Below, one piece after another: positions 4,251 to 36,651 of a stretch of DNA of 64,000 nucleotides (positions within the stretch are counted from its first letter, which is position 1; the number at the start of each line of letters is the position of its first letter). A model generated the notes under the pieces. That model saw nothing but the letters and a program-made list of their open reading frames with translations, ran no database searches and was not told the origin of the DNA. Source of the stretch: a virus; the IMG/VR virus record IMGVR_UViG_3300027792_000010; one strand, given 5' to 3'. The position numbers and the translations under genes were made by a program.

Positions 4251-4706
4251 TTACCCCTTGGAAAGCTTATCTCTGACTATTTGGTTTATTGTTTTTCCGT
4301 CTGCTCTACCTTTAACAATAGATAAAATCTTACTCATCACCATACCCATTTGTTTAATAGATACGGGCTCAGATATTGATATAACCGTATCAATAATTTG
4401 AGATAGTTCTTCTTCGGTAAGAGGAGTTGGTAGGTAGGACTTATATACCTTTACCTCGTATTCATTAATATCAACCAAATCTTGTCTTGATGCTTTCTTA
4501 AACATCTCTGAAGCATCTTCTCGTTGTTTAATACACCTGGAGATAACAGTAATAGCCATATCGTCTGAAACTTCTTTTCGATTTTTGATAACTTCATTCT
4601 GGATCTCTGAATCGAGAAGACGAAGACAAGAAACTTTAGATGATTCACGGGCTTTCATTGCAGCCTTAATGTCATCCCTAATTTTGATGTAAATATCTGA
4701 AGCCAT
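4251..4706 (-). CDS. yqeY: GatB/YqeY domain protein
   Basis: IKAAMKA...KQREDASEMF...E...YLP..LTEEEL..II...MGMVM...GRADG pattern. Confidence 0.9.
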   Translation of the reverse strand: MASDIYIKIRDDIKAAMKARESSKVSCLRLLDSEIQNEVIKNRKEVSDDMAITVISRCIKQREDASEMFKKASRQDLVDINEYEVKVYKSYLPTPLTEEELSQIIDTVISISEPVSIKQMGMVMSKILSIVKGRADGKTINQIVRDKLSKG

Positions 4707-4760: not shown

Positions 4761-4867
4761 AGAAAATTATTATGAATTACTTTTAATAATAAATATTTGA
4801 TAATCTACTAATTAAAGCGGTAAAATATGGGTAAATCTATAACTGCAACTATAGGAGTACAGGCATC

Positions 4868-5677
4868 ATGTGGGTCTTCTTAGCAAATCTCAATCCGTGG
4901 CTTTCTTACAGTCTTCTTGTCTTATGTTTAATAGCACTAGTAGTTATCTCTTTAAGAGGTAAACTTTTTGTGCAGTGGGATAAAGACAAGGTTATAGGAG
5001 TAGGTAGAGGCAGTAAAAAGGATGAAAAAGAATTAGAATCCTCGAATAAAAAGGGGGACCCTGTTAGTAGACACCCAGATACGTATATAGTCCCTAGCTG
5101 CTCTGATTGTATACTCCTTGTATTAGGGATGAGGGAGAAGGCTCAGATGGCTATGGATAAAGTAGAAAATCATATATTGAAAAATCAGATGAACTTTTGT
5201 GAACAAAAGCTTGCCGAATTAACATCTCTAATACTTAATGAATTTTCTAAAGTCATTGGTAATAAGGAGGCTATAATAAGTGAAGCTCTCCGATATGAGA
5301 TTGTTAGGGCATTACTGTCAGAGATCATAGAAAGACTTAAATCTGAGATAAGAAGGTCATTTAAAGAGAATGGCTTCTATGAGTTCGGGGATGGAGAATT
5401 CTCTAATTACGTAAATAATAGATATGACTATCTGGCTACAATCTCTGACCAGCACTATAGCAACAGGTATCTTGCCTATAGTTCTATCCTACCCTTTGAT
5501 TTGATAAGTGGAATTTTTGATAATAATAAGGACAAAATATACTCTATAGTAAGGGAAATATATACAATATCTAAGAGTATAAAAGCAAAAGCTAACGAAG
5601 ATATGGAAGAAGAAAAGAAAGCTTTTGCTGAAGAAGTTAGATCATTCGTAAAATCAAGAGGAGCACCAATATACTAA
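4868..5677 (+). CDS. membrane-anchored hypothetical protein; the only convincing plus-strand gene
   Basis: 269 aa, N-terminal hydrophobic helix, AGGAG RBS, occupies a gap free of minus-strand ORFs. Confidence 0.8.
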   Translation: MWVFLANLNPWLSYSLLVLCLIALVVISLRGKLFVQWDKDKVIGVGRGSKKDEKELESSNKKGDPVSRHPDTYIVPSCSDCILLVLGMREKAQMAMDKVENHILKNQMNFCEQKLAELTSLILNEFSKVIGNKEAIISEALRYEIVRALLSEIIERLKSEIRRSFKENGFYEFGDGEFSNYVNNRYDYLATISDQHYSNRYLAYSSILPFDLISGIFDNNKDKIYSIVREIYTISKSIKAKANEDMEEEKKAFAEEVRSFVKSRGAPIY

Positions 5678-10973: not shown

Positions 10974-11010
10974 ACAAAAAACCCCGCTTCAGTTTCCTGG
11001 GCGGGGTTTC
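10974..11010 (-). terminator. attenuator 1 intrinsic terminator
   Basis: AAACCCCGC...GCGGGGTTT hairpin followed by TTTTTGTTTT. Confidence 0.9.
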
Positions 11011-11037
11011 GTATTTTTTCTGGTTTACCAGTTTACG

Positions 11038-11151
11038 TCAAGTTTTCCCACCCACCACTATATTATTACAGAGTAAATATGACAATAACCATGCGGCTGC
11101 TGTATGCAGCTTGGTCATTGTCGAACATAGTGTAGAATGGACTTTTTTCAT
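11038..11151 (-). CDS. attenuator leader peptide 1 (37 aa) MKKVHSTLCSTMTKLHTAAAWLLSYLLCNNIVVGGKT
   Basis: Lies between promoter 11180-11208 and terminator; contains antiterminator TGGGTGGG (11047-11054). Confidence 0.85.
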   Translation of the reverse strand: MKKVHSTLCSTMTKLHTAAAWLLSYLLCNNIVVGGKT

Positions 11152-11179
11152 TTTAAATACCTATTACCTTTCAATTTAT

Positions 11180-11208
11180 AATATACCATTTTGTAGAACC
11201 AAGATCAA
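11180..11208 (-). promoter_or_regulatory. sigma70 promoter of attenuator 1 (TTGATC-N17-TATATT, TGG before -10)
   Basis: Same architecture as the other three attenuator promoters. Confidence 0.85.
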
Positions 11209-20573: not shown

Positions 20574-20705
20574 CCTATGCTCCTACAGTTAAATGATTTT
20601 CTTAGATAATGAGTTTGATATACAGGTTGTACACCACTTGATAAAAAACGGATAATAGGTTTTTCCCAGGGGTCATCTGCTAACCACAGATTACTTCTCG
20701 GAGTT

Positions 20706-20918
20706 TCAAAAAAGTCTTTTATCATTACTTTGTTCATGTAATTTTTTATCCTCTAAAGATTTTAAATACTCCAGATATAGAAAGGATTTCCCAATGATCG
20801 GTGATCCATAAATAGCGTTAAAAGGTGGTACATACCAAGGATCATCTGAACGCCAGGAACGAGCACTCTCTCGATCCATTATAACTAATTGCCTACCTTC
20901 AGTATCTACATAGACCAT
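20706..20918 (-). CDS. small protein with WxSDDPW motif
   Basis: SWRSDDPWY; AGGAG RBS. Confidence 0.65.
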   Translation of the reverse strand: MVYVDTEGRQLVIMDRESARSWRSDDPWYVPPFNAIYGSPIIGKSFLYLEYLKSLEDKKLHEQSNDKRLF

Positions 20919-21001
20919 TCGTAATCTCCTATATGATGGATATTTTCGTAGTGTTCCATTAATTCTTCTATTGTTTTTTTATATCATAGGAATCTATTAT
21001 C

Positions 21002-21061
21002 CTATTCAAAATCTTTCCTATCCCCCCAAGGATCATCGCTGTCCCAGGTTTCTTGAAGCAT
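21002..21061 (-). CDS. 19-aa micro-ORF MLQETWDSDDPWGDRKDFE
   Basis: GGAGG upstream; carries the repeated motif; overlaps the end of 21033..21329. Confidence 0.5.
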   Translation of the reverse strand: MLQETWDSDDPWGDRKDFE

Positions 21062-21329
21062 CTCTCCAGCCTCCTAAAGCCTCTACTAACTTTTTGGCTT
21101 CTTGATTTGATACTGACATCTCAAAAGTACTTGTATGCCCCCCATGAAAGTATCTAAAATCTACCAAGAACCAAGGATCGTCAGAGTACCACGGGGTCGA
21201 TAAATTGACAGTCATCGGAAAGGTGCTGAACCCATGATACTTCGAAAAATGAGGGACCTGTGCCACACCTGTGCCACAATCTACTCTTATAATCAACCAG
21301 GGGTCATCTGCTAACCACACTTGATCCAT
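21033..21329 (-). CDS. small protein with two Wx[AS]DDPW motifs
   Basis: VWLADDPWL and PWYSDDPWF. Confidence 0.7.
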   Translation of the reverse strand: MDQVWLADDPWLIIRVDCGTGVAQVPHFSKYHGFSTFPMTVNLSTPWYSDDPWFLVDFRYFHGGHTSTFEMSVSNQEAKKLVEALGGWRDASRNLGQR

Positions 21330-21507
21330 ACTTACTCTCTAATATTAAGGGATCTTTCCTTAACTCCTCCATAGTAACATTTATTTCTTCCATCGAAGGC
21401 ATAGGAGGAACAATAATTGGCTTAAACCATCCCCAAGGATCATCAGAAAACCAAATATCGTGATTATAAACACATAAGGTTGGTTTAGATAACTTAATAG
21501 AACTCAT
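21304..21507 (-). CDS. small protein with WxSDDPW motif
   Basis: IWFSDDPWG. Confidence 0.65.
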   Translation of the reverse strand: MSSIKLSKPTLCVYNHDIWFSDDPWGWFKPIIVPPMPSMEEINVTMEELRKDPLILESKYGSSVVSR

Positions 21508-21558
21508 AAAACTAATATACTATTTGGAAAACTCAAATTAAATAAGTTTCCAAAAGTC

Positions 21559-21852
21559 TTAGTTAGGGATACGAAATTTAGGAGGGCAATCTTGCTGGGA
21601 GGCACATAACTTTTTTTCAAACTCTTCTGCTTCTTTATCCCAATCTCTACCATCATATTGATGAAGTTTATCATAGGCACATGAAGCACAATAATATTCG
21701 AACTCATCCTCTCCTGTTGGAGAAGCCCATATCGGCTCCCCAATTACTGCTTCCTTGCACATACAATCGTAAGGATCTTCTACCTTGAAATTACACCTTA
21801 GAAAGTGCTCATCTAATTCTTCTTCCCTCGTGGTCATAATCCTTTCCTCCAC
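21559..21852 (-). CDS. hypothetical protein, Cys-containing
   Basis: CMCKE and YYCASC. Confidence 0.6.
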   Translation of the reverse strand: MEERIMTTREEELDEHFLRCNFKVEDPYDCMCKEAVIGEPIWASPTGEDEFEYYCASCAYDKLHQYDGRDWDKEAEEFEKKLCASQQDCPPKFRIPN

Positions 21853-21860
21853 ATCTTTGC

Positions 21861-22073
21861 TCAGCCTCCTGAAGTCTCAAAGTACATAGCTAACATAGCT
21901 TCTTCAGTTATCCAAGGATCGTCAGAAATCCAGATAACTTTAGTACTACCTAATAGATCTATAACTTTTGCTACCGCAGGATCTACTGAGCTATACATTT
22001 TTCTATAGTACCTTCTCTTCTTTAGCTCCTCTGATATCAAAGAATCGTCAGAATCCTGTAGTTTCATTAGCAA
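21861..22073 (-). CDS. small protein with WxSDDPW motif
   Basis: IWISDDPWI. Confidence 0.65.
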   Translation of the reverse strand: MLMKLQDSDDSLISEELKKRRYYRKMYSSVDPAVAKVIDLLGSTKVIWISDDPWITEEAMLAMYFETSGG

Positions 22074-22389
22074 AAGCCTTTATATCATTATATGTTTCTT
22101 CATCTAAATATATAGTATTAGGTACTAAAGGAAAATTAGTAATACGATCAAAAGCTTCCATAATGTCGTTTATAACCCAAGGGTCATCTGAGTACCATAT
22201 CTTACCACATAGCGTATCTACTTTTATCAAATCACGATCTTTTAATAGGTCGTGATAAGAACCGTCATTAGACTTTGCTGTATCTAAGTTCCAATCAGCA
22301 TTTACGCCATATACAGAATAATCGCTAGGGCAGTTTCGCTTTGCTTCCTCATAGTTGTCCCACACTGTCCCTCCAGCATAATCTTTCAT
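22048..22389 (-). CDS. small protein with WxSDDPW motif
   Basis: IWYSDDPWV. Confidence 0.7.
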   Translation of the reverse strand: MKDYAGGTVWDNYEEAKRNCPSDYSVYGVNADWNLDTAKSNDGSYHDLLKDRDLIKVDTLCGKIWYSDDPWVINDIMEAFDRITNFPLVPNTIYLDEETYNDIKAFANETTGF

Positions 22390-22516
22390 GCGTCATGCGC
22401 CCCTTTTTCTTTGGTGTGCCTTGCTCTTTAAAGTAGGTTTCATAGTTTGTAGTGTGACCGATAGTGTAAATCATAGCAATAATATACTAATTAGGAAGGA
22501 AGTTTTAAATATAAAA

Positions 22517-22605
22517 CGGAAGGTACAGGATTTGAACCTGTGAAGGTATTTAAACTCCCTGACGGTTTAGCAAACCGTTGCAATAGGCCGCTCTGCCAAC
22601 CTTCC
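22517..22605 (-). tRNA. tRNA-Ser(GCU)
   Basis: Class II, G73, loop TTGCTAA. Confidence 0.95.
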
Positions 22606-22645
22606 ATTATTTTTTCTTTATGTTTCTTTTGTCCATAATCGAAAA

Positions 22646-22722
22646 TGGTGGGAGTATCACGAATTGAACGTGAGACCTTTCGGTTATCAGCCGAACGCTC
22701 TAACCATCTGAGCTATACTCCC
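22646..22722 (-). tRNA. tRNA-Ile(GAU)
   Basis: Loop CTGATAA, CCA encoded. Confidence 0.95.
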
Positions 22723-22737
22723 TATAAGCTATTAGGT

Positions 22738-22813
22738 TGGTAGCGGAATGTTGGAGTTGAACCAACTTAACCAAGTTTATGAGACTCGGTGAGATGCCGA
22801 CCTCCCACCCGCG
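22738..22813 (-). tRNA. tRNA-Met(CAU), initiator-like
   Basis: C1 mismatch, CGCGGG start, loop CTCATAA; acceptor stem imperfect. Confidence 0.8.
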
Positions 22814-22825
22814 ATGTATTTAAAA

Positions 22826-22896
22826 TAGTGAGAATCAGAATCGAACTGATCTAAACAGGATATGAGCCTGTTGAGGGGCCACTCCTCAATCTCACT
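22826..22896 (-). tRNA. tRNA-Met/Ile2(CAU), identity uncertain
   Basis: AGTGAGA/TCTCACT acceptor, loop CTCATAT. Confidence 0.8.
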
Positions 22897-22905
22897 GTAT
22901 GTTTA

Positions 22906-22981
22906 TGGCGGGGACGACGGGTTACGATCCCGCTCTCTTTGGCTTGACAAGCCAATGCTTTCCCGATTAAGCTACGTCCCC
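22906..22981 (-). tRNA. tRNA-Asp(GUC)
   Basis: G73, loop TTGTCAA, CCA encoded. Confidence 0.93.
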
Positions 22982-22991
22982 TAATATTTAA

Positions 22992-23474
22992 TTAATCCTC
23001 ACCTTCATAATCTATGATAGGTACTATTCTTACGTTCCTATCCTTATTGCCCCTAAGTATACGCTCAGCCTCTTTGTAACTATCGAATACTGTACTATCT
23101 ACAGTTCCTATTAAGGGGTCCAAAAATACATACCCTACTTTAAGACCTTGTTTCTTTAGATTCTCCAAAGCTGTATCTAAGTATTCTATCTTCTGCTTCT
23201 GTAATACAAATCCTATATTCAAATCAAAGACACGAACTAATTCATCATACTCTTTGTCTGGTAGGAATCCCTTCAAAAGGCATAAAGAACCTACGCAGCT
23301 TTCTAAGTATTTTCCGATTTTCAGAGAATGAAGTACATAGTAATAGCCATCCTCGTCTTCATCGAATCCTACTAATCTCACAACTTCGTGGAAGTCTATA
23401 AGTAGTTCTCCTTTATGTTTCTCTATAAACTCTAAAATCTCTGGCTTAGGATCTTTAAACTCTGATATGTCCAC
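22992..23474 (-). CDS. hypothetical protein
   Basis: 160-aa ORF between tRNAs, AGGAG RBS. Confidence 0.7.
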   Translation of the reverse strand: MDISEFKDPKPEILEFIEKHKGELLIDFHEVVRLVGFDEDEDGYYYVLHSLKIGKYLESCVGSLCLLKGFLPDKEYDELVRVFDLNIGFVLQKQKIEYLDTALENLKKQGLKVGYVFLDPLIGTVDSTVFDSYKEAERILRGNKDRNVRIVPIIDYEGED

Positions 23475-23495
23475 TATATACTCCTAAGAAAAATA

Positions 23496-23571
23496 TGGTG
23501 CCGCCTTTCGGAGTTGAACCGAATTCTTTAGCTCTTCAGGCTAACGCAATCACCGGACTTGCTCAAGCGGC
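23496..23571 (-). tRNA. tRNA-Phe(GAA)
   Basis: Loop CTGAAGA, CCA encoded. Confidence 0.95.
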
Positions 23572-23621
23572 ATATAATTTGCCTTTGTAATTCTCTTACA
23601 TCAGATAGGCTATATTAAAAT

Positions 23622-23657
23622 AAAAAAGCCCCCGAACTTCTCAGTCCGGGGGCTTTT
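23622..23657 (-). terminator. attenuator 2 intrinsic terminator
   Basis: AAAAGCCCCCGGAC...GTTCGGGGGCTTTTTT. Confidence 0.92.
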
Positions 23658-23680
23658 ATAAGCTACTTGTTTACCCGGAC

Positions 23681-23758
23681 CTATACAATACTATCAAACA
23701 TACTATCAAAACTGATAGTATCGCTGTTGATGATAATGCTGAAAGTAGAGGTACACAT
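23681..23758 (-). CDS. attenuator leader peptide 2 (25 aa) MCTSTFSIIINSDTISFDSMFDSIV
   Basis: AAGGA RBS; antiterminator GTCCGGG (23674-23680) directly after the TAG. Confidence 0.88.
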   Translation of the reverse strand: MCTSTFSIIINSDTISFDSMFDSIV

Positions 23759-23798
23759 TGAAAATAGTTTTCCTTGAAAAAGTTTTTGTTCTGTCTTT

Positions 23799-23827
23799 AA
23801 TATACCACTTTGTAATACAAAGATCAA
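23799..23827 (-). promoter_or_regulatory. sigma70 promoter of attenuator 2
   Basis: TTGATC-N17-TATATT with AAGTGG before -10. Confidence 0.85.
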
Positions 23828-23834
23828 ATAAATT

Positions 23835-24110
23835 TTAAGAATACATCAAAGTATCTGAAAGAGACTTAGGCATAGACATACTCCTCAGGTACCCACCACC
23901 ACCTGTCCCCTGGTGCTGAGTAGGCTTAATCGGGGCGTGAGTGCTATCACCCTGCACAACTGGATTGTAGTTCTGAGAGTTGTCTACAACGTTACCGCTA
24001 GTATTACCCATCTTTTGATCTCTTGGACTAGTTGTCCCCCGTCCTGTATTATTCTGCGTAAAACTTGCCATACCAGCAAAGACTACATCTACTGATTTAT
24101 CTGCTGCCAT
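23835..24110 (-). CDS. hypothetical low-complexity protein
   Basis: AAGGAG RBS; G/T/N/S-rich. Confidence 0.65.
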   Translation of the reverse strand: MAADKSVDVVFAGMASFTQNNTGRGTTSPRDQKMGNTSGNVVDNSQNYNPVVQGDSTHAPIKPTQHQGTGGGGYLRSMSMPKSLSDTLMYS

Positions 24111-24279
24111 AATTATACTCCTTTACTAAACAAAAATTCAATACAATCACTTATATAATATATATTAAAAGATTATATGATTCAATTTATTTTGCTATAT
24201 CTAAAACTTTATTAACATCCTCATATGGAGTATCTTGACCTTATATTTCATCAGAGAACAAATTATTAGATAGGTCTTA

Positions 24280-24474
24280 TTAAACTAAAGGTTGAGGCTT
24301 GTTAATAGGCTCAATTAAAACGTAGGTACTATCCTCTTCAGTATTGTACCAAAAAATGAGTTTGCCATGATGCTCCGTAAAACAATCTAAAAGAGATGCC
24401 TTATTTCCACAAGGTTTTATCTTCTGATGCTTTTTTAAAGCCCTTTCAATTAACTCTTGTTTCAATTTATCCAT
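24280..24474 (-). CDS. hypothetical protein
   Basis: ORF track. Confidence 0.55.
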   Translation of the reverse strand: MDKLKQELIERALKKHQKIKPCGNKASLLDCFTEHHGKLIFWYNTEEDSTYVLIEPINKPQPLV

Positions 24475-24566
24475 CTTGGTATCCTTACATAGTATACTTA
24501 AAAATTATCTGTATAAGTAGATAATTATAGTATTAGTCTAATTCTACCATTATCATCTCTAATATC

Positions 24567-25088
24567 TTATTGCCAACATTTTTCATAGTCTTTATTTATA
24601 CCAGAGATATATGCAAGTATATCATAAATATAGCTGTTAGGATTAATATATCTATTTACTTTTCTAAACTCTTTTTCGTCTAATCCTAAAAGTCTATTTA
24701 TGAATAAACCAACGGCACCACTTCTTGAAGTACCTGCGTCACAATGTACTACTAGTACACCTACATGTTCATCATTAAGTAACTTTACGAAATCTAGTAT
24801 CTTATGAGCATCTGTTTCATCAAACAAACGTAACCCAGAATCTAATTTTTTTGGGGTAATAGATTTTATTCTTTCAAACTGTTCTTTAGATATATCACCA
24901 AAACAAAGATTTAAAATGCTTTTGCAATTCATCCTATGCATGAGTTCTACTTTATCATCTGTAATTAGTTTCTCTGCAGGGGTGCTATATATAGAGATGA
25001 GCGCCCAACTTAGAGATGATATAGTCTCCTGATTCGTTATCACATCCGTAATAACTTTCCTCGGAAAAACACGTATATGCCTTATCAT
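24567..25088 (-). CDS. protein-tyrosine/dual-specificity phosphatase-like protein
   Basis: VVHCDAGTSRS (CX5R). Confidence 0.85.
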   Translation of the reverse strand: MIRHIRVFPRKVITDVITNQETISSLSWALISIYSTPAEKLITDDKVELMHRMNCKSILNLCFGDISKEQFERIKSITPKKLDSGLRLFDETDAHKILDFVKLLNDEHVGVLVVHCDAGTSRSGAVGLFINRLLGLDEKEFRKVNRYINPNSYIYDILAYISGINKDYEKCWQ

Positions 25089-25870
25089 ACTGTTTTTACT
25101 TTCACTTTATAGGTTTTGTAGAAATCTCTGGTGATATTATGAAACTCTTCCGGTAGTAATTCTACAGTTTTTTGAGCAATATCTTTAGGGATTTCTTTAT
25201 AGAAAGCCTGAGCTATACCTCCGGCAATACATGCCATAGTATCCGCATCGCCATTAAGTCTTATAGCTTTTTTGATCGCGTCTATAAAGGAATCGGACTC
25301 AAGAAAACAAATGATAGATTCAGGTACTGACCCCTGACACGTCGCATCGAATTTGTAGGTCGGTGCGATATCTACCAGAGTACGATTAAGGTCATATCCA
25401 AAACTTTTTGATATGACTCTCTTAATCTCTTCTTTGGATTTCCCAATGCGTGCCATATAAACTGCTAAAGCTGTAGCTTGAGCACCTTTGATACCTTCTG
25501 GATGACTATGAGTACACTCTGCGCTTTTTTTAGCCTCTTCTAAGACCTTCCTAGGGTTATCAAAAGCATACCCTATAGGACTTACCCTCATGGCAGAACC
25601 ATTGCCAAAACTATTAAAAGGGGCATTAGAAGAAGAATCTAACCAATCTTGAAACATCCCGCCATATCCCCGACCTGGGTATCTATTACCGAAGTCTTTG
25701 TAACACTCACCATAGCTCTTCCCCGTTAGGATGGCTGAGCAGGTAGCGAAAGACATTACAGAGTCATCCGTGTAATCAGTCCCATCTGCAAACAATTCAA
25801 AATCATATACTTCTGTTTTCTTCCATTCATATGCACTCCCGATCACGTCACCTATGCAGGCACCCAGCAT
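25085..25870 (-). CDS. ADP-ribosylglycohydrolase (DraG/ARH family)
   Basis: GACIGDVIG, YTDDS, GNGSAMRVSP, NGDADT; start moved to MLGAC. Confidence 0.92.
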   Translation of the reverse strand: MLGACIGDVIGSAYEWKKTEVYDFELFADGTDYTDDSVMSFATCSAILTGKSYGECYKDFGNRYPGRGYGGMFQDWLDSSSNAPFNSFGNGSAMRVSPIGYAFDNPRKVLEEAKKSAECTHSHPEGIKGAQATALAVYMARIGKSKEEIKRVISKSFGYDLNRTLVDIAPTYKFDATCQGSVPESIICFLESDSFIDAIKKAIRLNGDADTMACIAGGIAQAFYKEIPKDIAQKTVELLPEEFHNITRDFYKTYKVKVKTV

Positions 25871-26802
25871 GATATACCGCCTTTCACTCTTTCTTTTTCG
25901 TATCCCAACCATTCTTTCCACGATATCCAACCTTTATTTAGATATGTACGGCTAGGAAAAGAAGGTATAGTGATTGGTCTACTACCACTTTTACAAAAAC
26001 ATTCCCATTCGGTTTTACTTTGTATATTAAATTTTTTAATATATTCTTTAGCTTCTGAATAGGGCATAAAACCTGTTTTTAAGACTATTATACCTTTTAT
26101 TTTATAAAATTTATTATATTTTCTTAACAATTTTAAGCTACTATCTCTATACATGAAATCTCTTAATAGTATTGAATTATTGTTAGAAAACCTTGTGCTA
26201 TAATAAATGCTGTCTTTAGGTCTTGTATAGTCAAATAACTTTTCACCCTTTTTTCTAACTTTTATGTAAATAATACCGTGTATACCTTTTATGCTACTTT
26301 CTATTGCTTCTAATAATTTATATGCTAACTCTTTGCTCCCTGAAGTGAAATCTGTTTCAAGATTATTATTATCTTTTAGAATGCTCACGCTCCCATCTCC
26401 GTCAAAGTACCCTCTAATAAAGTCTGGTAAATATTCCTGAGGGACTGTTGGAAATCCAATATCTAAACTTTTTCTTTCTTTTCCTCCAAGATTTTTTATA
26501 TCTTCAATTATTTCTTTTGAGTAAATACATATAAAATAATTATTTTTACAAGTTTTCTTTATAGGATGATTAGATTCCATAACTTTTAAAATATTTTCTA
26601 ATATATATTTGTCATTTTTATGCTGGCTTATTCCAAAGCATTCTTTATCTATAAATCCATCGGCCCACCAAAATCCTAAAACATAGGCCATATCTTTAGT
26701 CCAAATTTTAAAAAAATCTTGATTAACGTTATATCTTCTTGCCCCCTGATTCCACTTATTTTTCCAACGTTCCAATTTTTCTGATTGTGCTTCTTTGCTC
26801 AT
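25852..26802 (-). CDS. LAGLIDADG homing-endonuclease-like protein with extra C-terminal domain
   Basis: YVLGFWWADG and FIRGYFDGDG motifs. Confidence 0.85.
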   Translation of the reverse strand: MSKEAQSEKLERWKNKWNQGARRYNVNQDFFKIWTKDMAYVLGFWWADGFIDKECFGISQHKNDKYILENILKVMESNHPIKKTCKNNYFICIYSKEIIEDIKNLGGKERKSLDIGFPTVPQEYLPDFIRGYFDGDGSVSILKDNNNLETDFTSGSKELAYKLLEAIESSIKGIHGIIYIKVRKKGEKLFDYTRPKDSIYYSTRFSNNNSILLRDFMYRDSSLKLLRKYNKFYKIKGIIVLKTGFMPYSEAKEYIKKFNIQSKTEWECFCKSGSRPITIPSFPSRTYLNKGWISWKEWLGYEKERVKGGISCWVPA

Positions 26803-26947
26803 CTTTCCCTCTATTTTCTTCCTCTATATAGCTATCAATTATCCTTCTTAAAAATTCTGCTTTAGAGATTCCCATCTCTTCAGATTTGTTTTTAAGAAAC
26901 TCTTGCTCTTTATCTGATAGACATATTTGAGTCCTGTTAAGTTTCAT
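26756..26947 (-). CDS. ribbon-helix-helix (CopG-like) DNA-binding protein
   Basis: RTQICLSDKEQEFL...GISKAEFLRRII. Confidence 0.75.
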   Translation of the reverse strand: MKLNRTQICLSDKEQEFLKNKSEEMGISKAEFLRRIIDSYIEEENRGKDEQRSTIRKIGTLEK

Positions 26948-26989
26948 CTTACATCTCCATTACATCAAGTAGATGTTATTAATAGGTTA

Positions 26990-27691
26990 TTAAAGTTTAA
27001 CTATATTTTCATATAACATGTGGTATTTTCCAAAATCTATATTATCGTGCCAATGCCCACACCACAGGCTATTGAATGTAGTGTTTTGACAGACATGTTC
27101 TAAATATTTCTCGGTAGGATCAACCCTACCAATTTCACGACATAATCCTATAGACTTCAGGTATGTTTCGGCTATACTTGATGGAGCGGTATGAGCCAAA
27201 ATATAATCTACAGAATATTGGTGCTGCTCCAGATTCTGTAGCCCTAAATCCATCTCAGACCAACTTGGTATTTCTTCAGGCCACCATGACTTTCCTTCTG
27301 TCCTTGTAGCTTTATCTATACTTTGCGCGCCACCCATAACAAAGAATTTTTTACCCTCTATGGTATAGATGTGCCCTCTTTTAAGGTGAAAGATACTATC
27401 TGAGACCTTACCTACTTTACTCCCAAACATATCTATTTGTTCGAGGGCATATAGTCTGGGATGGTTCTCATGGTTACCACAAACAAATAATGTTGTAAAA
27501 GGTTTATTAGATAGCCACCAAGTCCAATAACTCTCTGTAGGGCTAGGGGTATTATCCCACACCAGCCCAAAGTCACCGAGAATGATTAGATAATCATTCT
27601 TGGTGAGCTTTACTCCTTCAGGCCACCTCTTTGCTGATAGCTTATGTATGTCGGTGTCACCGTGAGTGTCACCAGTTAAAAACGTCGCCAT
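26990..27691 (-). CDS. calcineurin-like metallophosphoesterase
   Basis: GDTHG, LGDFG, GNHEN, GHWH. Confidence 0.92.
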   Translation of the reverse strand: MATFLTGDTHGDTDIHKLSAKRWPEGVKLTKNDYLIILGDFGLVWDNTPSPTESYWTWWLSNKPFTTLFVCGNHENHPRLYALEQIDMFGSKVGKVSDSIFHLKRGHIYTIEGKKFFVMGGAQSIDKATRTEGKSWWPEEIPSWSEMDLGLQNLEQHQYSVDYILAHTAPSSIAETYLKSIGLCREIGRVDPTEKYLEHVCQNTTFNSLWCGHWHDNIDFGKYHMLYENIVKL

Positions 27692-27794
27692 TTTTATATA
27701 CCGCCTTAAGTATCATAGGATAAGGAGAACTTATTTTAATCACGTCACGCCAGGGGTCGTCTGCTTCCCTCACATCATCAGATAATATACTTTT

Positions 27795-27992
27795 TTACAA
27801 ATTAGTTCTACAAAGATTATAAGAGCGCTGGATAAAGTCAAAACGTCTTTCCTTAACCTGAGTCAAAGGGATCATTGGATTTTTACAGATTTCAAACAAA
27901 GGAGGTTTAAATCTATACAGCCTATTACCAAATAAATCATATATCCCATCAAACCAAGGGTCATCTACTTCCCAGACTTTATTATCTTTCAT
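27795..27992 (-). CDS. small protein with WxVDDPW motif
   Basis: VWEVDDPWF. Confidence 0.65.
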   Translation of the reverse strand: MKDNKVWEVDDPWFDGIYDLFGNRLYRFKPPLFEICKNPMIPLTQVKERRFDFIQRSYNLCRTNL

Positions 27993-28150
27993 TTATACTT
28001 TAACTCTAATGAGAATATACTACTATGTTCTATACGCATAGGTACACACTACATCACCTATAATAAATAAAGGAACTTTATCTCGTATAAAACCATGATC
28101 ACTACACCAGGGGTCATCTGCTAACCATACTTTATTCGCTAATAGTTCAT

Positions 28151-28357
28151 CTATTGTTTTGATATATGACTCCTAGTAGTATTATCTTTATTATACATAG
28201 GTATCATTCCTTCAGGCAACTGTTGCACTAAAAAACATTTTCTGGCTATGGAACTATAGTCCATACGATTCATGAGAGGGGCTACCATTGCTTGTGCCAA
28301 CTTTGAAAAGTCTGGCATAGCCCAGGGATCATCAGCAAACCACAAATTTGTTTTCAT
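28151..28357 (-). CDS. small protein with WxADDPW motif
   Basis: LWFADDPWA; GAGG RBS. Confidence 0.65.
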   Translation of the reverse strand: MKTNLWFADDPWAMPDFSKLAQAMVAPLMNRMDYSSIARKCFLVQQLPEGMIPMYNKDNTTRSHISKQ

Positions 28358-28630
28358 ACATCCTCTTTATTATCTTTACAATTATCCGGCTTAGCAACAC
28401 TAGCTAACGCGATTAGATATCGATACAATTCATCGGGTGTTCGATTTGGTAAAGATTCTTGCAATCGAGTTAATTCTTTTGTAAAGTAGGCGACATCGAC
28501 ACCGAATCGATTTTTCATTGCTCAAGCTCCCGCAGCCGTTGCTGCATTTCCCGATATTTTCGTAGTTTTCGTTTTAGTATTATCAATCGAATAACTGAGA
28601 TAATGGATCTGATCATATGATACCTTCGAA

Positions 28631-29119
28631 TTATTTTGTTAGAAAAATAGCAGTTTTACAATCTTTTGTTATCGATTTTATGGTATCCAGCACATCACTA
28701 GGACAGTGTAAGAAGATTGCTGTATTTATTGAACCTGATGTTAACCATTCTTCTGCTTTATCTAAGGTAGCTGTTTGCAACGCAATAGTTTCGGATTCTT
28801 TGATAGGAACAATACATTGTTCAAAATCCCTTATAGAAAACCAATGAATATCTGAAGGGGAGATATCCAAACAAATACCGATGAGTCTATCTGCAAAATG
28901 CTCTACAATTCTTCCCCGTTCCCATAAAGGTGCGTTTGCAGGTACACCATTAACGATGCATGCTATAGGCTGGATAATTTTAACAGCGGTTCCTATTGGA
29001 TACTGTAAGGGAGCTACTCGAATATTAGGTTTGGATATTTTGATTTTGATATAGACTATACAGACAAGAATACTAATAATACCTAAGCTTACTACCAATG
29101 GATACGAAAAACTCAGCAT
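28631..29119 (-). CDS. membrane-anchored hypothetical protein
   Basis: N-terminal TM helix; AAGGAG RBS. Confidence 0.7.
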   Translation of the reverse strand: MLSFSYPLVVSLGIISILVCIVYIKIKISKPNIRVAPLQYPIGTAVKIIQPIACIVNGVPANAPLWERGRIVEHFADRLIGICLDISPSDIHWFSIRDFEQCIVPIKESETIALQTATLDKAEEWLTSGSINTAIFLHCPSDVLDTIKSITKDCKTAIFLTK

Positions 29120-29128
29120 ACGATCTCC

Positions 29129-29641
29129 TTATTTATAACTATTTACATTTTCAGACACGTAAGTAACAGGAATACCTGCTTGTTTGAGCATTTCTTCGCT
29201 TTCTTGTGCGCATTGGTATTTCGATTCACAATGTACTGCAACTATACCAACAGAGATAATAAACATTGTGCATACCCGACAAGGTGTCATGCTGCAATAT
29301 AATGTACTGCCTGCTAAGCTAATACCAAGTTTGGCTGCTTGTAATATTGCGTTCTGTTCTGCATGAATTGTTCGGATACAATGCACAGTATATTCATCCG
29401 GCTCTAGCCGCAAAGAAACTTTTTGCTTAGTTAAAGGTGTAAGGTCGCCGTGAAATCTACCTTCATATCGATGACCTACCTCATCGCAATGACTTAATCC
29501 AGGAGGAGCACCAGCATATCCCGTTACTAAAATACGATTATCCCGAATGATTACACATCCTACTTTCCCTCGATCACATGATGACCTATCAGATATTGCT
29601 CGCATTACGGAAAAGAAATATTCATGCCATGTCGGTCGCAT
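29129..29641 (-). CDS. dCMP deaminase family protein
   Basis: SSCDRGKVG, HAEQNA, PCRVC. Confidence 0.92.
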   Translation of the reverse strand: MRPTWHEYFFSVMRAISDRSSCDRGKVGCVIIRDNRILVTGYAGAPPGLSHCDEVGHRYEGRFHGDLTPLTKQKVSLRLEPDEYTVHCIRTIHAEQNAILQAAKLGISLAGSTLYCSMTPCRVCTMFIISVGIVAVHCESKYQCAQESEEMLKQAGIPVTYVSENVNSYK

Positions 29642-29695
29642 ACATACTCCTGGAGGTTAACCAAGGTAGCTAGCAGATGCCAGCTACCCATTTTG

Positions 29696-31546
29696 TTACG
29701 GTAAATAGACAATTGATTCTTTAACAGTAAATCGATTATTTAGATTTTCCGTCCAAACTACTTTAGCATAATCAGAGTACCTACCAACTTTAGGGTACTG
29801 ATAAGCAAAACCTGGGGACGTACCTAATGTTTGGGTAACCCAGCCACTTGTTTTATAGTATCCGAATTTAATACTGATGCTAGAATCTGGGTTCATCTTT
29901 TCCCAAGTAGCATTAAGGGATACACCAAAATTATTAATCGCATTAATAGAGCATGATTCTGTATCGATAGTATCCCGAAAGGATTTCCAGGAATTATTTA
30001 CATATTTTCTATGCACTAAGTACCCACGCTCGTCACCCACACCCATATTTTCCTTACCAGTCCAATATAAAAGATGAAGGGTATCAGATACCCGATTAAC
30101 GCTTACACCCATTACCCGAGTATTAGCATCTAGGGTTGTCACTGCTCCCCACGAAGTACCATTAAATATTCGATATCTAATAGGTTGCTTCCACTCACTG
30201 CAATCTTGGTTTATATACACCAACATCAGACTCTTTGTTGCAGGAGTTTGGCATACACTGAAAATGTATTGATTAGTTTTTCGAATATTATCGTATGCAG
30301 GATCTAATGTAATGTTGTCACCCGCTTGCTGTAATTCTAAGACTGGGCTAAATACACCATTCTTGTAAAACGTAGTCTGTATTTTAACTCCTACTTGTGA
30401 CTGAGATGCCCAAAAAACATGTGGAATACCCGAGGTCAAAATAACTTGACCTTGTTTTATGGAAGTATTTGGGGTGTTATATTCATAGACAAGAAGTCGG
30501 TTAGTCACAGTTAAAGAAAGAGAATCAATAGTAGTTAAATATAACTGTATGTTAGGAGGTGCATCAGTTTTCCAGAGCACATAAACAGTCGATGCCACTT
30601 TTATTGAATGTAAAAAAGTACTAGCCTTACCTGAATCGTAGCATAACGGACCATACCATAAAGAATTGTACCCATCTACTGACTTCCCTCGGTAGGAGTA
30701 GAATGTTAAGTCTGTTCGATTAGTTACAGAAGGATCATAGGTATTGGTAAAATTACAAACAGGGGTAGTTGGGGTGGGAGGTTTAATTAAGTCCAGCCTT
30801 TCAATTGATTGAATGGATGGAACACAATTATTTACTGCAAATGTTACAAGGGGGCCTGCTTGGTTTGTGGCATACCCACCAAATATAATTCTGCCTATGT
30901 TTGATAGCATTAGAGTGGAATTACAAGGTATAGACCAATGCATACCTATGATGATAATACTATTCGATTGGGGCTCAATAAAAATCCAATTATTTACGAG
31001 CGTAGGGTCGTCCCCAACAAGAATGGCATTTATACTATGATAAAATCCTTGTGAAGCCAAAGACACGGGATAAACAGGTAAATTAAATCGATTTGTTCCG
31101 TAATATGGCTCTGATAGGTCATTATAGTATCCGGTAAAATTGACATAAAACTGAATAGCAAAATTCCCACAAACATAATAAGGAAGATAAGGGTGATACT
31201 GTGTAAGGGATAGACATTTACTGACCCAAGATATCTTTTGCGCCTTGGTTAAATTATCCCAATCTCCTGGTAAATTACCTGATTGTAGTATTTGAATATC
31301 GGTTGAGGTAAGATAGTTATCAGCATCTACATCACCAAACCGATTAAACATCCCAAGATTAATTAATGATACGGCGGAATCAATGTCTAACTGATTAACT
31401 GACCCATCTTGATTAACATCACCCGATCCCCAATATGCTGTAGTTGGGTAAGGTCGATGAAAGGGATCATTTCCTTGCCATAAATCGTAGGCAATCGAAT
31501 AGCTCATTACTGGTAACAGGCATAAAAAGATAAGCACATTTTTCAT
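29696..31546 (-). CDS. secreted protein with dockerin/EF-hand-like repeats
   Basis: Signal peptide; GDVNQDGSVNQLD and GDVDADNYLTSTD. Confidence 0.75.
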   Translation of the reverse strand: MKNVLIFLCLLPVMSYSIAYDLWQGNDPFHRPYPTTAYWGSGDVNQDGSVNQLDIDSAVSLINLGMFNRFGDVDADNYLTSTDIQILQSGNLPGDWDNLTKAQKISWVSKCLSLTQYHPYLPYYVCGNFAIQFYVNFTGYYNDLSEPYYGTNRFNLPVYPVSLASQGFYHSINAILVGDDPTLVNNWIFIEPQSNSIIIIGMHWSIPCNSTLMLSNIGRIIFGGYATNQAGPLVTFAVNNCVPSIQSIERLDLIKPPTPTTPVCNFTNTYDPSVTNRTDLTFYSYRGKSVDGYNSLWYGPLCYDSGKASTFLHSIKVASTVYVLWKTDAPPNIQLYLTTIDSLSLTVTNRLLVYEYNTPNTSIKQGQVILTSGIPHVFWASQSQVGVKIQTTFYKNGVFSPVLELQQAGDNITLDPAYDNIRKTNQYIFSVCQTPATKSLMLVYINQDCSEWKQPIRYRIFNGTSWGAVTTLDANTRVMGVSVNRVSDTLHLLYWTGKENMGVGDERGYLVHRKYVNNSWKSFRDTIDTESCSINAINNFGVSLNATWEKMNPDSSISIKFGYYKTSGWVTQTLGTSPGFAYQYPKVGRYSDYAKVVWTENLNNRFTVKESIVYLP

Positions 31547-31686
31547 TGTTGGCTCCTTGATTGTGGTTTAGAGGTGTTATCTTGCGCTCATAATTGAAAA
31601 TTTTTAGTCATTTGTCGGTCTCCTTTTTAATAGTATTTCGTATGCCCTTTATTACTATCAGCATAAAAATTATATGGTTTCTAATA

Positions 31687-31800
31687 TTATAACCTTATTG
31701 TTTTTATAATAGCTAAGGGATTAACTATACCAATACCTATGTTATCTCTAATAACAAATCCAATCGGTCTACCCCAAGGATCATCAGCTTGCCATATCAT
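31687..31800 (-). CDS. 37-aa protein MIWQADDPWGRPIGF...
   Basis: Motif-bearing; ATGA-coupled to the upstream 43-aa ORF (31797..31928). Confidence 0.55.
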   Translation of the reverse strand: MIWQADDPWGRPIGFVIRDNIGIGIVNPLAIIKTIRL

Positions 31801-31930
31801 GAACGTAGTTGCCTTTTTTTGAAGAAGCCCTCAAAAGAAGTATCTTTTTCTTCTAATAAACGAACATATCGGCTAGTATAGTTGTTATTTATTTTGAAAG
31901 GTTCGTTGTTTATATTAGTCACTATCATCT

Positions 31931-33292
31931 CCGTTCTGAAAAACTTATAAAATCTTTGCAAGACTCATGTTTTCTTCCTGCTTCATAGAAACAGCTTCTT
32001 GACCTATACAAGCATCTTGAAGTCTTATACTTTCTCCACAGGCTTTAATTCCCGACGAACTATCGGTATTTTTAAGTTTAATTAATACATACTTTTCAAG
32101 ATTAATAGATGCATTTAAGTCTCTATCTATGACATTTCCACAATCACATATATAAATCCTATCTTCTAAAGTAAGGTCTTCTTTCAAACAACCACAAACA
32201 GAACACGTCTTACTTGAAGGAAAGAACCTATCTACTTTAATTATGGAACCTCCATACCAAGAGGTCTTATAGGTTAGTTGCCTTTTAATTTCATTAAAAG
32301 AAGCATCTCCTATAGCACCTGCAAGTTTATGATTTTTCATCATACCAGAGACGTTTAAATCTTCTAAAACGATGTATCTTGGTTTGGTTTTCGCCAAAAT
32401 ACTTGTCATCTTATGAAGAGTATCTTTTCTTTGACTACTAATTCTTTTATATATCTTTTGTACTTTTAATTTACTCTTTAATCTATTATTACTTGATCTT
32501 TTAGTTTCTTTATCAAACTTTTTACGAGCTAAATCCTTTTGAGCATGAGCTAACTTTTTCTTTGATTTTTTAAGATACTTAGGATTTTCAAATATTTGAC
32601 AATTAGAACATGTAGCTAATGTTTTAATGCCTACATCAACACCTAAAACAGATTCTATTTGGTTTACTGGTTCTGGTATATCTTGTTCTACTTGAACAGA
32701 TATATACCATCTATCAGCTTCTTTGGAGACTGTCATAGAGTTTATTTTAACATCTTTAGTTGTTATATAACCTTTTTCTTTAAGTTTTACATAACCGACT
32801 TTAGGAATATTGATTGTTGAATTAGTTATATAGAACCCAAAGGAAATCCTAAAAGAATCTTTGTCTTTATGTTTTGACTTGAACTTAGGGAAACCTACTT
32901 TTTTACCTTGTTTCAAACCTCTAAAAAAGTTTTTGAAAGCTGTATCTAAATCCCTTAATGCTTCTTGAGGAGCCATTTTGGATATATCATACATCCAATG
33001 ATAATCAGTTTTCTTCTTACTACATAAAATTTTATGTTGATCTATAGCAGTTAAGGTTTTCTTTTCTGACTTATAAAGTTCTATACGTTCATTTAATCCC
33101 CAATTATAAGCAAAACGAGCACATCCAACACTCTTTTCTAAAAGAGTACGTTGTTTATTATTAGGATTAAGTTCTACTTTATATGCTCTATTTATCTTCA
33201 TTTTCTTTATTCTTCTTAGTCATATGACTTCTTCTACCATAAATTTTAGCTGAATAACAAGACATAATAGTTAAGATATCTGTTAGATTCCC
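31931..33292 (-). mobile_element. IS607-family element carrying only tnpB (no tnpA)
   Basis: Left end GGGAATCTAACAG, right end TAAGTTTTTCAGAACGG, GG at both junctions. Confidence 0.75.
31945..33201 (-). CDS. tnpB: RNA-guided endonuclease TnpB
   Basis: RAYKVELNP HTH; RuvC D (GVDVG), E (VLEDL), D (DRDLNA) intact; zinc finger CSVC...CDC. Confidence 0.95.
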   Translation of the reverse strand: MKINRAYKVELNPNNKQRTLLEKSVGCARFAYNWGLNERIELYKSEKKTLTAIDQHKILCSKKKTDYHWMYDISKMAPQEALRDLDTAFKNFFRGLKQGKKVGFPKFKSKHKDKDSFRISFGFYITNSTINIPKVGYVKLKEKGYITTKDVKINSMTVSKEADRWYISVQVEQDIPEPVNQIESVLGVDVGIKTLATCSNCQIFENPKYLKKSKKKLAHAQKDLARKKFDKETKRSSNNRLKSKLKVQKIYKRISSQRKDTLHKMTSILAKTKPRYIVLEDLNVSGMMKNHKLAGAIGDASFNEIKRQLTYKTSWYGGSIIKVDRFFPSSKTCSVCGCLKEDLTLEDRIYICDCGNVIDRDLNASINLEKYVLIKLKNTDSSSGIKACGESIRLQDACIGQEAVSMKQEENMSLAKIL

Positions 33293-33296
33293 TTAA

Positions 33297-34118
33297 TCAA
33301 ATACCTATTTTTAACCCATAGTATTTGAGCTTTAAAGAAGGTTCGTATATATTAATCTTATTATACAATTTTATATGCTCAAGAAATCTTTTATGTTCAA
33401 GTTTCCAGGCTTCCAAAGATTTATGGTTGAAGGTTAATTCTTTTTCTAGCTTTTTGATAGTTAACTCATTCCATTTAAAATGATGAATTTCTATACCAAA
33501 AGAATGAGGGGATAGCTCCTCAAAGTAGGGTTCTGTGTTGCAACCTTTAAAATAGACTCCACCTCTATTTATAAATACGTGACGACCTCCCCCAATATCT
33601 CTACTCATCTTAGCGCATACTATCTTTTTATCCCAACCTTTTAATATTTCTTTTGTTATATATCCACCTATTGGGTACTGGACTTCCAAAGGTATATCTT
33701 TGATTATAGGCGTTAATTCACCAGTAATACATATTCTATCTATCAGCCTGCCCTCAAGGTAATCAAATCCAAGGCGTTTTGCGTTTTTAATGGATGACCT
33801 AATATCTTTAGGATAAAATTGAAATTCATCTATATCCGCATATATAGCCCAGTCGCTATCTTTACGGTAATGGCTACTTATAAGTTTTTCCTGAGCTACC
33901 TTTTCGTCCTCAGAAAATTCTCCTGGCCATTCTTGGAGGACACACAGATTTCTATACTTTTTAACTTTTTCTTTTACAGTATTGTAGGTCTCAGAGTCCT
34001 TTGATGCATTCACTACAATAAGTATCTTTTTAGGTCTAAACTTTTCATAGTGCTGTAAAAACATATCTAATAAGGGAGTATCGAAACAACTTATTGTAGT
34101 TATTACATAGATTCTCAT
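33297..34118 (-). CDS. GT-A fold glycosyltransferase (GT2/GT92-like)
   Basis: YADIDEF DxD motif; IHHFKW. Confidence 0.75.
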   Translation of the reverse strand: MRIYVITTISCFDTPLLDMFLQHYEKFRPKKILIVVNASKDSETYNTVKEKVKKYRNLCVLQEWPGEFSEDEKVAQEKLISSHYRKDSDWAIYADIDEFQFYPKDIRSSIKNAKRLGFDYLEGRLIDRICITGELTPIIKDIPLEVQYPIGGYITKEILKGWDKKIVCAKMSRDIGGGRHVFINRGGVYFKGCNTEPYFEELSPHSFGIEIHHFKWNELTIKKLEKELTFNHKSLEAWKLEHKRFLEHIKLYNKINIYEPSLKLKYYGLKIGI

Positions 34119-34153
34119 ATTGTTCCTATCTATGTGTAGCCTATAAAGACTTA

Positions 34154-34330
34154 TTATAGTCGAACATTAAAAACCTCTAATTTAGAGATATCTATTCTTA
34201 AACCTAAATATTGCATACGCTGTACTAGCTTCCCCAAGCACATATCTATATCTATATCTACCCATGGGTCGTCAGCTTTCCATAGATAGGTTGAAGCAGT
34301 CTGGGTTAAAGTTAAAGTTAAATCTTCCAT
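34154..34330 (-). CDS. 58-aa WxADDPW protein, paralog of 37776..38036
   Basis: MEDLTLTLTQTASTYLWKADDPWVD. Confidence 0.65.
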   Translation of the reverse strand: MEDLTLTLTQTASTYLWKADDPWVDIDIDMCLGKLVQRMQYLGLRIDISKLEVFNVRL

Positions 34331-34376
34331 CATAAAAATAATATACTTTTTGGAAGTATGAGTTTAAAGTGTAAAA

Positions 34377-34608: not shown

Positions 34609-34614
34609 ACATAA

Positions 34615-36643: not shown

Positions 36644-36651
36644 TTTTTATT

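Follow-up and report, generated by a model that had tools for sequence, protein, structure and literature searches.

The IMG/VR virus record IMGVR_UViG_3300027792_000010 was analyzed as one window of 64,000 nucleotides, which belongs to a phage-like contig of ~202 kb with at least 29 tRNA genes on one strand. On the minus strand of this window, at 11208–10971, a promoter is followed by a short open reading frame (ORF) and an intrinsic terminator, behind which lie a 57-amino-acid gene and 12 tRNA genes. Here we describe this leader unit as a candidate leader-peptide attenuator of phage tRNA genes, compare it with the other units of its kind in the same phage and in relatives, and consider which of the downstream tRNA genes it may control.

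The leader unit at 11208 and the genes behind it

Directly 3′ of the promoter, the leader ORF has a start codon and a ribosome-binding site, and an intrinsic terminator separates it from the tRNA genes, both of which are features of leader-peptide attenuators (Table 1). The transcription start, which we placed from the position of the −10 element, would open a short 5′ untranslated region (UTR), and the small hairpin between the stop codon and the terminator is a possible RNA polymerase pause element. The leader peptide belonged to no Pfam or PHROG family. Among Rfam families only tRNAs passed at gathering level, and no leader family did so; the best was Trp_leader, with 20.9 bits against a cut-off of 41 (E = 0.12).

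Table 1. Positions of the leader unit and related features (window coordinates unless a contig is named)
Feature	Position	Strand	Description
Promoter	11208–11180	−	TTGATC, 17-nt spacer, TG-extended TATATT
5′ UTR	11172–11152	−	21 nt; AGG core 11162–11160, 8 nt 5′ of ATG
Leader ORF	11151–11038	−	ATG, 37 codons, TGA stop
Control run, codons 5–28	11139–11068	−	cognate to downstream tRNAs
Region 1	11140–11124	−	5′ strand of long hairpin; partner is region 2
Region 2, codons 30–35	11064–11047	−	alternative partners: region 1, or terminator 5′ arm via 11054–11047
4-bp hairpin	11031–11020	−	between stop codon and terminator; stem invariant, loop variable in three variants
Intrinsic terminator	11009–10971	−	GC-rich stem 11009–10979, −18 kcal/mol; T tract to 10971
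57-amino-acid gene	10953–10780	−	first gene 3′ of terminator; GGAGG ribosome-binding site
Very stable hairpin	10622–10577	−	−29 kcal/mol; immediately 5′ of tRNA-Cys, within the 217-nt spacer
Proximal tRNA block	10563–8521	−	Cys-GCA, Leu-UAG, Leu-GAG, Leu-CAA, Tyr-GUA (27-nt insert), Leu-UAA, Trp-CCA, His-GUG
Promoter-like site before topA (8456–6435)	8522–8481	−	site 8490, 19.4 bits; homologous site of relative 18.4 bits
Distal tRNAs	3041–7	−	Ser-UGA (3041–2931, 27-nt insert), Thr-UGU, Ala-UGC, Ala-GGC; interleaved with S21 and peptide deformylase genes
Weight-matrix promoter sites listed	61621, 59197, 53595, 50480, 47098, 38617, 38052, 34346, 27790, 23805, 22487, 21520, 17778, 15225, 11623, 11186, 8490, 6411, 4739, 2579	−	
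Fifth strong minus-strand terminator	43772–43732	−	−18.7 kcal/mol; not behind a leader ORF
Fifth unit, copy of a relative	L020 4136–4400		same-class promoter, longer 5′ UTR, 22-codon leader

The protein encoded by the 57-amino-acid gene had no Pfam or PHROG match, and its gene occupies the same position in the relatives described below. The very stable hairpin that precedes tRNA-Cys shows a T run solely on the plus strand; its role may be as a processing site or in stopping plus-strand (antisense) transcription.

The leader does lie upstream of a 12-tRNA block, as the initial annotation of this DNA had proposed. ARAGORN identified 10 tRNA genes downstream of the leader and Rfam two more, and all 12 are on the minus strand between 10563 and 7. 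No further tRNA genes are annotated in the 1.2 kb past the window start, a stretch in which no tRNA scan was made. The two genes added by Rfam have 27-nt inserts in the anticodon loop; ARAGORN placed the introns differently in both and called them Asn and Asp. We read the insert-bearing gene at 9755–9644 as a putative Tyr-GUA tRNA, on the indirect ground of synteny with the insert-free Tyr gene of relatives, and, less certainly and likewise on indirect grounds, the one at 3041–2931 as Ser-UGA.

Anticodon-loop inserts of 27–28 nt were seen in four tRNA genes: these Tyr and Ser genes of the window, and Val-UAC and Arg-UCU genes of relatives (L014 4169–4273 and L020 5337–5442). In the predicted structures, each insert base-pairs with the 5′ loop half, the anticodon included, to give a continuous helix of ~13 bp with no bulge-helix-bulge. 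The Tyr gene at the equivalent position in a relative lacks the insert.

Leader codons, sister units and relatives

The leader codons listed in the initial annotation were all found in the ORF: TGG, TTA, TTG, TCA, TAT, TTA, CTC and TGT form codons 21–28 (11091–11068, minus strand), and two CAT codons, CTA, three ACA codons and GCA, GCC and GCA come earlier. By amino acid, 22 of the 24 codons in the control run specify His, Ser, Thr, Leu, Cys, Ala, Trp or Tyr, and each of the 12 downstream tRNAs has at least one cognate codon in it. We evaluated this match against codons drawn randomly from the window's own codon usage; these values are quoted instead of those from a null of natural ORF segments, which is limited by its 12.8 thousand background codons. 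With all 12 tRNAs, the leader had a best run score of 14 under strict wobble (p ≤ 5e-7), represented 12/12 tRNAs (p = 4e-4) and had a cognate count of 20/36 (p = 3e-4), so that it contains a run of regulatory codons of the kind seen in leader-peptide attenuators. With the eight proximal tRNAs, the corresponding values were p = 0.005 for the best run, p = 0.007 for representation of all and p = 0.018 for the count; with the four distal tRNAs (Ser-UGA, Thr-UGU, Ala-UGC and Ala-GGC) they were p = 0.002, p = 0.09 (not significant) and p = 0.015. Therefore, the leader appears to be written for the whole downstream set, beyond the adjacent block.

The unit is one of several in this phage. Its 30-nt promoter motif occurs in exactly four copies in the 64 kb (11208, 23827, 38639 and 61643; 0 expected in shuffles), and each copy precedes an ORF of 25–37 codons that has a Shine–Dalgarno-like sequence and, behind it, a strong intrinsic terminator on the minus strand. 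Minus-strand terminators of −18 kcal/mol or stronger number five in the window, four of them behind leader ORFs. In the other three units, the tRNA block starts 50–55 nt past the terminator. When each leader was scored against each tRNA set under wobble rules, the diagonal of the matrix was highest in every row and column (20–23/36, 17/24, 11–13/27 and 10/25), and the true assignment of leaders to tRNA sets ranked 1 among 24 permutations.

This correspondence extends to isoacceptors. The Ser codons in the run of the 11208 unit are all TCN, with Ser-UGA downstream, whereas those of unit 2 are all AGY, with Ser-GCU downstream. Units 2 and 4 use ATY and CGY ahead of Ile-GAU and Arg-ACG, whereas a fifth unit, found in a relative, uses ATA, AGA and AGG ahead of Ile-UAU and Arg-UCU. 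The leader of this fifth unit on contig L020 contains an 11-codon run of Ile (ATA), Gly, Glu and Arg (AGR), and behind its terminator follow Glu, Glu, Ile-UAU, Gly, Gly and Arg-UCU tRNAs. Since the codon match holds at the isoacceptor level across units, the leaders would most likely sense the decoding activity of individual tRNAs and not amino-acid pools.

The −10 motif of the phage is nearly strand-specific, the exact 8-mer occurring 23 times on the minus strand versus once on the plus strand and the weight matrix finding 21 versus 0 sites. The −10 element is of the GTATATTA type, and two promoter classes share it. The first class has an A tract before the −10 element and precedes protein genes; the second has TTGATCTT, 8 nt and AAAGTGG before the −10 element and precedes leader units only.

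The extended block of unit 3 includes, adjacent to tRNA-Gln-CUG, a tRNA with the anticodon CUA (34537–34609), which reads TAG. TAG is the stop codon of the unit 2 and unit 3 leaders (23683–23681 and 38497–38495), and the long ORFs of the window fit the standard code well.

Scanning of metagenome contigs of the Joint Genome Institute (JGI) with the promoter motif recovered homologues of all four units. The homologues of the 11208 unit fell into two variants, L024/L026 (also L030–L036) and L016, with ~89% DNA identity at the unit, whereas the neighboring radical-SAM protein showed only 63% amino-acid identity. In both variants, the start, stop and length of the leader ORF were unchanged, indels being confined to sequence outside it, and the small hairpin, the 57-amino-acid gene and tRNA-Cys were kept. 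The cognate positions in the control run were 24/24 in L024, 23/24 in L016 and 22/24 in the window. Changes within the run comprised Met12→Thr, Lys14→Thr or Ala, Leu22→Ser, Ser10→Leu and Thr13→Asn, and just one substitution leaves the cognate set. Units 2 and 4 drift likewise into their own sets (Thr→Ile and Asn→Asp; Phe→Val, Ala→Val and His→Arg). Such exchanges appear poor for a functional peptide and neutral for a codon barcode. The synonymous divergence of the leader was 0.16 versus 0.35 and 0.24 for the flanking genes (small numbers), as expected if its codons and structure are constrained.

Behind the leader of the relative, the tRNA block reads Cys, Leu-CAG, Leu-AAG, Leu-CAA, Tyr, Leu-UAA, Trp and His, followed by topA, and is interrupted by TnpB and HNH insertions (TnpB at L030 6818–7960). 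The longer contigs of the relatives all break before the region of the distal tRNAs, past the cluster with the YqeY-like gene, and peptide deformylase homologues lie on contigs too short to reach it. Searches of IMG/VR with the promoter motif, the 682-amino-acid protein, the radical-SAM protein and topA gave no useful close relatives; the lone promoter-motif match there, L001, was rejected as a chance match. Phage GenBank records gave only a match to a tRNA-Leu. No homologous leader was found on the contigs with radical-SAM homologues P0002, P0004 and P0005 where their DNA could be examined, and nothing similar to the leader unit was found in L005 or in a second gap of L002.

This last contig (L002; JGI contig Ga0180433_10000018, 264 kb) is from a distant phage with a radical-SAM gene 49% identical to that of the window and 45 tRNAs in 21 kb. 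It contains a 44-codon ORF (4801–4935) and a terminator (4962–4991), behind which lie Tyr, Trp, Phe, Gln, Asn, Gly and His tRNAs; the end of the ORF names these first seven tRNAs within 13 residues (p about 0.003), and an antiterminator of 11–13 bp overlaps the stop codon. As a single hand-picked example, it is only suggestive of a second case. Two more units of promoter, mini-ORF and hairpin lie just upstream of it (4429–4700).

Alternative pairings, readthrough and competing explanations

The antiterminator pairing and its spacing were exactly as the initial annotation had claimed. The G-rich segment TGGGTGGG (11054–11047) begins 13 nt past the last control codon and pairs with CCCGCCCA (11005–10998) in the 5′ arm of the terminator, forming 8 bp including one G-U (−16.9 kcal/mol). 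The competing structures in the window have similar predicted energies, with −18.1 kcal/mol for the pairing of regions 1 and 2 (1:2), −16.9 kcal/mol for that of region 2 with the terminator arm (2:3) and −17.4 kcal/mol for the terminator. All three pairings are kept in both relatives, where the 2:3 pairing is stronger (−22.1 and −22.0 versus −16.9 kcal/mol) and the terminator has −20.9 and −22.5 kcal/mol; the 1:2 duplex ranges from −18 to −20 kcal/mol, and a consensus fold is retained in the three variants. The 251-nt stretch as a whole folds far better than its shuffles (z = −4.6).

Folding with ribosome masking, which the initial annotation had suggested as a check, gave a divided result. 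In the full-length leader at equilibrium, the terminator won at every masked ribosome position; this procedure was therefore non-discriminating and was replaced by folding of an RNA cut before the 3′ arm of the terminator, with an assumed footprint of 15 nt 5′ and 11 nt 3′ of the A-site codon. In the truncated RNA, region 2 engaged the terminator arm while the A site was at codons 2–29 and released it from codon 30 onward. In the other three units, the antiterminator was lost at A-site codons 24, 17 and 18, each of which is the end of the control run. Since equilibrium always favors the terminator, the switch must be kinetic, and kinetic switching is what we assume here, as in known attenuators. 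For the terminator arm, the best partner anywhere in the upstream RNA lay at the 3′ end of the leader ORF in each of the four units; dinucleotide shuffles did as well in 25, 8, 7 and 10 of 1000 cases, the value of 25 being that of the 11208 unit. Thus, an antiterminator, its masking at the end of the ORF and a 1:2 anti-antiterminator, all characteristic of attenuators, are present in silico.

These features suggest the following sequence of events. Transcription would begin at the 11208–11180 promoter, and a ribosome would initiate on the 37-codon leader. If codons 5–28 were decoded fast, the ribosome at codons 30–38 would cover region 2 before the terminator was made, so that the terminator hairpin (11009–10979) would form and the transcript would end at ~10975. 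If any control codon were decoded slowly because its charged tRNA was scarce, region 2 would be left free to pair with the 5′ arm of the terminator, and the resulting antiterminator would allow readthrough into the 57-amino-acid gene and the Cys, four Leu, Tyr, Trp and His tRNAs. With no translation, region 1 would pair with region 2, leading to termination. As the phage tRNAs accumulated, the leader would again be read fast, which would constitute negative feedback on tRNA supply. A plausible use of such a circuit is the supply of tRNAs that are absent from the host or lost during infection.

On the basis of the sequence, we assign a probability of about 0.72 to the interpretation that the 11208 unit is a ribosome-mediated leader-peptide transcription attenuator of the trp/his/thr type controlling phage tRNA genes. 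In silico, it is supported by the anatomy of the unit, by the match between codons and tRNAs, by the alternative pairings and where these fall with respect to a ribosome footprint, and by conservation in relatives. Translation of the leader, ribosome–polymerase coupling in the host and the response itself would have to accompany these features. The attenuator proposed in the initial annotation is thereby borne out in its sequence features, codon match, fourfold recurrence and conservation, whereas its feeding of the distal Thr, Ala and Ser tRNAs by 8–11 kb of readthrough is not established.

Several observations weigh against this interpretation. The codon match is modest with the eight proximal tRNAs alone (p 0.005–0.02), and strong codon statistics are reached only by including the distal Ser, Thr and Ala tRNAs, for which a transcriptional link to the leader is in doubt. 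The terminator dominates the full-length leader at equilibrium, as described above, and the antiterminator of the 11208 unit is the weakest of the four, with an arm-paired probability of 0.57–0.65 versus a background of 0.36. The AGG core is a weak Shine–Dalgarno sequence, conserved in both relatives. The 57-amino-acid gene and the 217-nt spacer intervene before the first tRNA, as they do in no other unit of the window. No double compensatory changes were found among the relatives, which are all close, and transcription–translation coupling is a property that we infer for the host.

Which genes the unit would control depends on the promoters behind it. A position-weight scan found no promoter-like site between 11186 and 8490; therefore, the 57-amino-acid gene and the eight proximal tRNAs lie behind the attenuator alone. 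A relative likewise has no promoter-like site from the terminator to tRNA-His, an interval of 6.8 kb with the insertions versus 2.4 kb in the window. From the sequence, attenuator control of the eight proximal tRNAs (Cys to His) thus appears well supported, and sole dependence on the attenuator probably extends no further than the site at 8490, before topA. Promoter prediction was motif-based and can miss sites, as the exact-motif scan did with 8490.

The attenuator may also govern the distal Ser-UGA, Thr-UGU, Ala-UGC and Ala-GGC tRNAs through 8–11 kb of readthrough, so that the 12 tRNAs would form one set; we regard this as possible but unproven, and as the less probable arrangement. The codons of the leader speak in its favor: of the 24 codons in the run, 10 encode Ser (TCN), Thr or Ala, an enrichment by both count and run (p = 0.015 and p = 0.002), the run is highly significant only when the distal tRNAs are included, and these codons are retained or increased in the relatives. 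Ser (TCN), Thr and Ala are also covered by no other attenuator of the phage, and no separate attenuator or other leader/terminator unit was found before the distal tRNAs. Strong internal terminators, which the initial annotation had named as an obstacle to this link, were looked for on the minus strand between 10975 and 1 and none was found. Against readthrough stand the promoter-like sites at 8490, 6411, 4739 and 2579, the first three of which are conserved in the relative; therefore, the distal Ser, Thr and Ala tRNAs have putative promoters of their own before them. A conserved convergent plus-strand gene (4868–5677) also lies along this route. Moreover, many of the Ser, Thr and Ala codons sit in helices of the leader RNA, so that structure alone could hold them, and codons 12–14 vary among Met, Lys, Asn, Thr and Ala. 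That these three amino acids are neutral filler in all leaders is neither confirmed nor excluded: by a hand count they occupy 8 of the 35 non-cognate positions of the other leaders, with no clear enrichment.

If the attenuator reading is extended to all units, the phage may possess a distributed, codon-barcoded sensor of the tRNA pool of the cell, in which four to five attenuators share the phage tRNA complement by isoacceptor and each induces its own block. We advance this idea tentatively; under it, phage tRNAs would be an inducible counter-measure with feedback, not a constitutive supplement. A block would be switched on when its own tRNAs failed to keep ribosomes moving, for example because of host anticodon nucleases or infection-induced loss; in the widest form, the 11208 unit would coordinate 12 tRNAs and topA over 11 kb.

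Alternatively, the unit might be a true attenuator that senses general translation speed or amino-acid starvation, with its codon choice a by-product. Structure alone cannot separate a scarce tRNA, an uncharged tRNA and a slow ribosome, for all of which the anatomy would be identical, and the classical relatives of this mechanism sense charging. A general sensor, however, needs no barcode, whereas in each of the four (five) leaders the codons in use are those of the block behind it, and codons of other blocks are avoided, the split following isoacceptors within Ser, Ile and Arg, and extra tRNA would not relieve amino-acid starvation. We therefore consider this explanation unlikely. Least probable of all is that the unit is no regulator and instead a small gene or small RNA whose own terminator ends the upstream unit, the tRNA promoters being unrecognised and the codon match a product of chance or composition: a hydrophobic stretch in the leader peptide, the strong structure of the leader RNA, the modest proximal codon statistics and the limits of motif-based promoter prediction would fit it, but the match of a leader to the tRNA set behind it recurs in four units that share a promoter, each with the antiterminator at the 3′ end of the ORF, the substitutions in relatives are non-conservative for the peptide yet stay within the cognate set, and neither the peptide nor the RNA matched a family in Pfam, PHROG or, above threshold, Rfam.

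Known attenuators and the genomic surroundings

Leaders that respond to more than one amino acid are known from enterobacteria, in which thrL (Thr, Ile) and the ilvGMEDA leader (Ile, Leu, Val) are multivalent; trpL, hisL, leuL and pheL are further attenuators of this group. Like these, the phage unit has a short ORF close behind its promoter, a run of regulatory codons, 1:2, 2:3 and 3:4 pairings and an intrinsic terminator ahead of the genes under control; the antiterminator would be blocked by a ribosome positioned at the stop codon, and one leader would sense more than one amino acid. Unlike these, it would control tRNA genes rather than enzymes, its leader names eight amino acids and 12 isoacceptors, and it is phage-borne and one of four to five units dividing a tRNA complement. 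In addition, whereas enterobacterial attenuators precede genes that make or charge the named amino acids, the genes found here are a 57-amino-acid protein of unknown family and tRNA genes.

A leader-peptide attenuator over a gene of the translation apparatus is known from Escherichia coli pheST, with its pheM leader. There, too, leader codons gate a gene that serves the decoding of the named amino acid; the differences are that the gene is a synthetase rather than a tRNA, that a single amino acid is involved and that the system is cellular, not viral. T-box riboswitches are likewise transcription attenuators that report on a particular tRNA and control the same decoding pathway, but they bind uncharged tRNA directly and need no translation, whereas the phage element has an ORF; the T-box model gave no Rfam match at gathering level or at E ≤ 1.

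Phage tRNA clusters have been viewed as codon compensation or as replacement of host tRNAs cut by defence nucleases (PMC10264068). The clusters considered there are the same cargo, namely phage tRNA blocks, and scarce or lost host tRNAs would be a plausible reason to sense supply; attenuators, leaders and terminators are unmentioned in that paper. In the full-text literature searched, the leader-peptide attenuators found act on biosynthetic, synthetase, resistance and similar genes, and no tRNA gene was among their targets. The mechanism is of a familiar kind, and the proposed tRNA target and the barcode logic are new.

The reason why phages carry tRNA genes has been debated for decades, with codon compensation, host tRNA loss and escape from anticodon nucleases as the proposals. 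If the attenuator interpretation is correct, the leaders themselves would state the reason, each tRNA block being made on demand when decoding of its own codons slows. A textbook mechanism would extend to a new class of target genes, and the question of the role of phage tRNAs would become open to simple reporter and in vitro tests. The succession of promoter, barcoded mini-ORF, terminator and tRNA block also provides a signature for surveying phage genomes.

Beyond its tRNA genes, the phage contig encodes ribosomal protein S21, peptide deformylase, a YqeY-like protein, a CCA-adding enzyme, topoisomerase I and TnpB. Four translation-related genes are interleaved with the tRNAs on the minus strand: S21 (1218–1484), peptide deformylase (544–1083), the YqeY-like (tRNA amidotransferase-type) protein (4251–4706) and the CCA-adding enzyme with an HD domain (57268–58611). 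An HPr-like gene lies just past the window start (L008). The TnpB gene is located at 31945–33219, and a 49-nt repeat (32020–32068) is common to its flank and to 2382–2430; the latter copy lies within an ORF-free, structured stretch of 860 nt (2070–2930) behind tRNA-Ser. Two overlapping families of 29–30-nt repeats (D2 and D5), with 7–8 copies that are 70–93% alike, are scattered across 17 kb (20665–37984, in plus-strand coordinates); paralogous genes that share a conserved peptide motif are their probable source.

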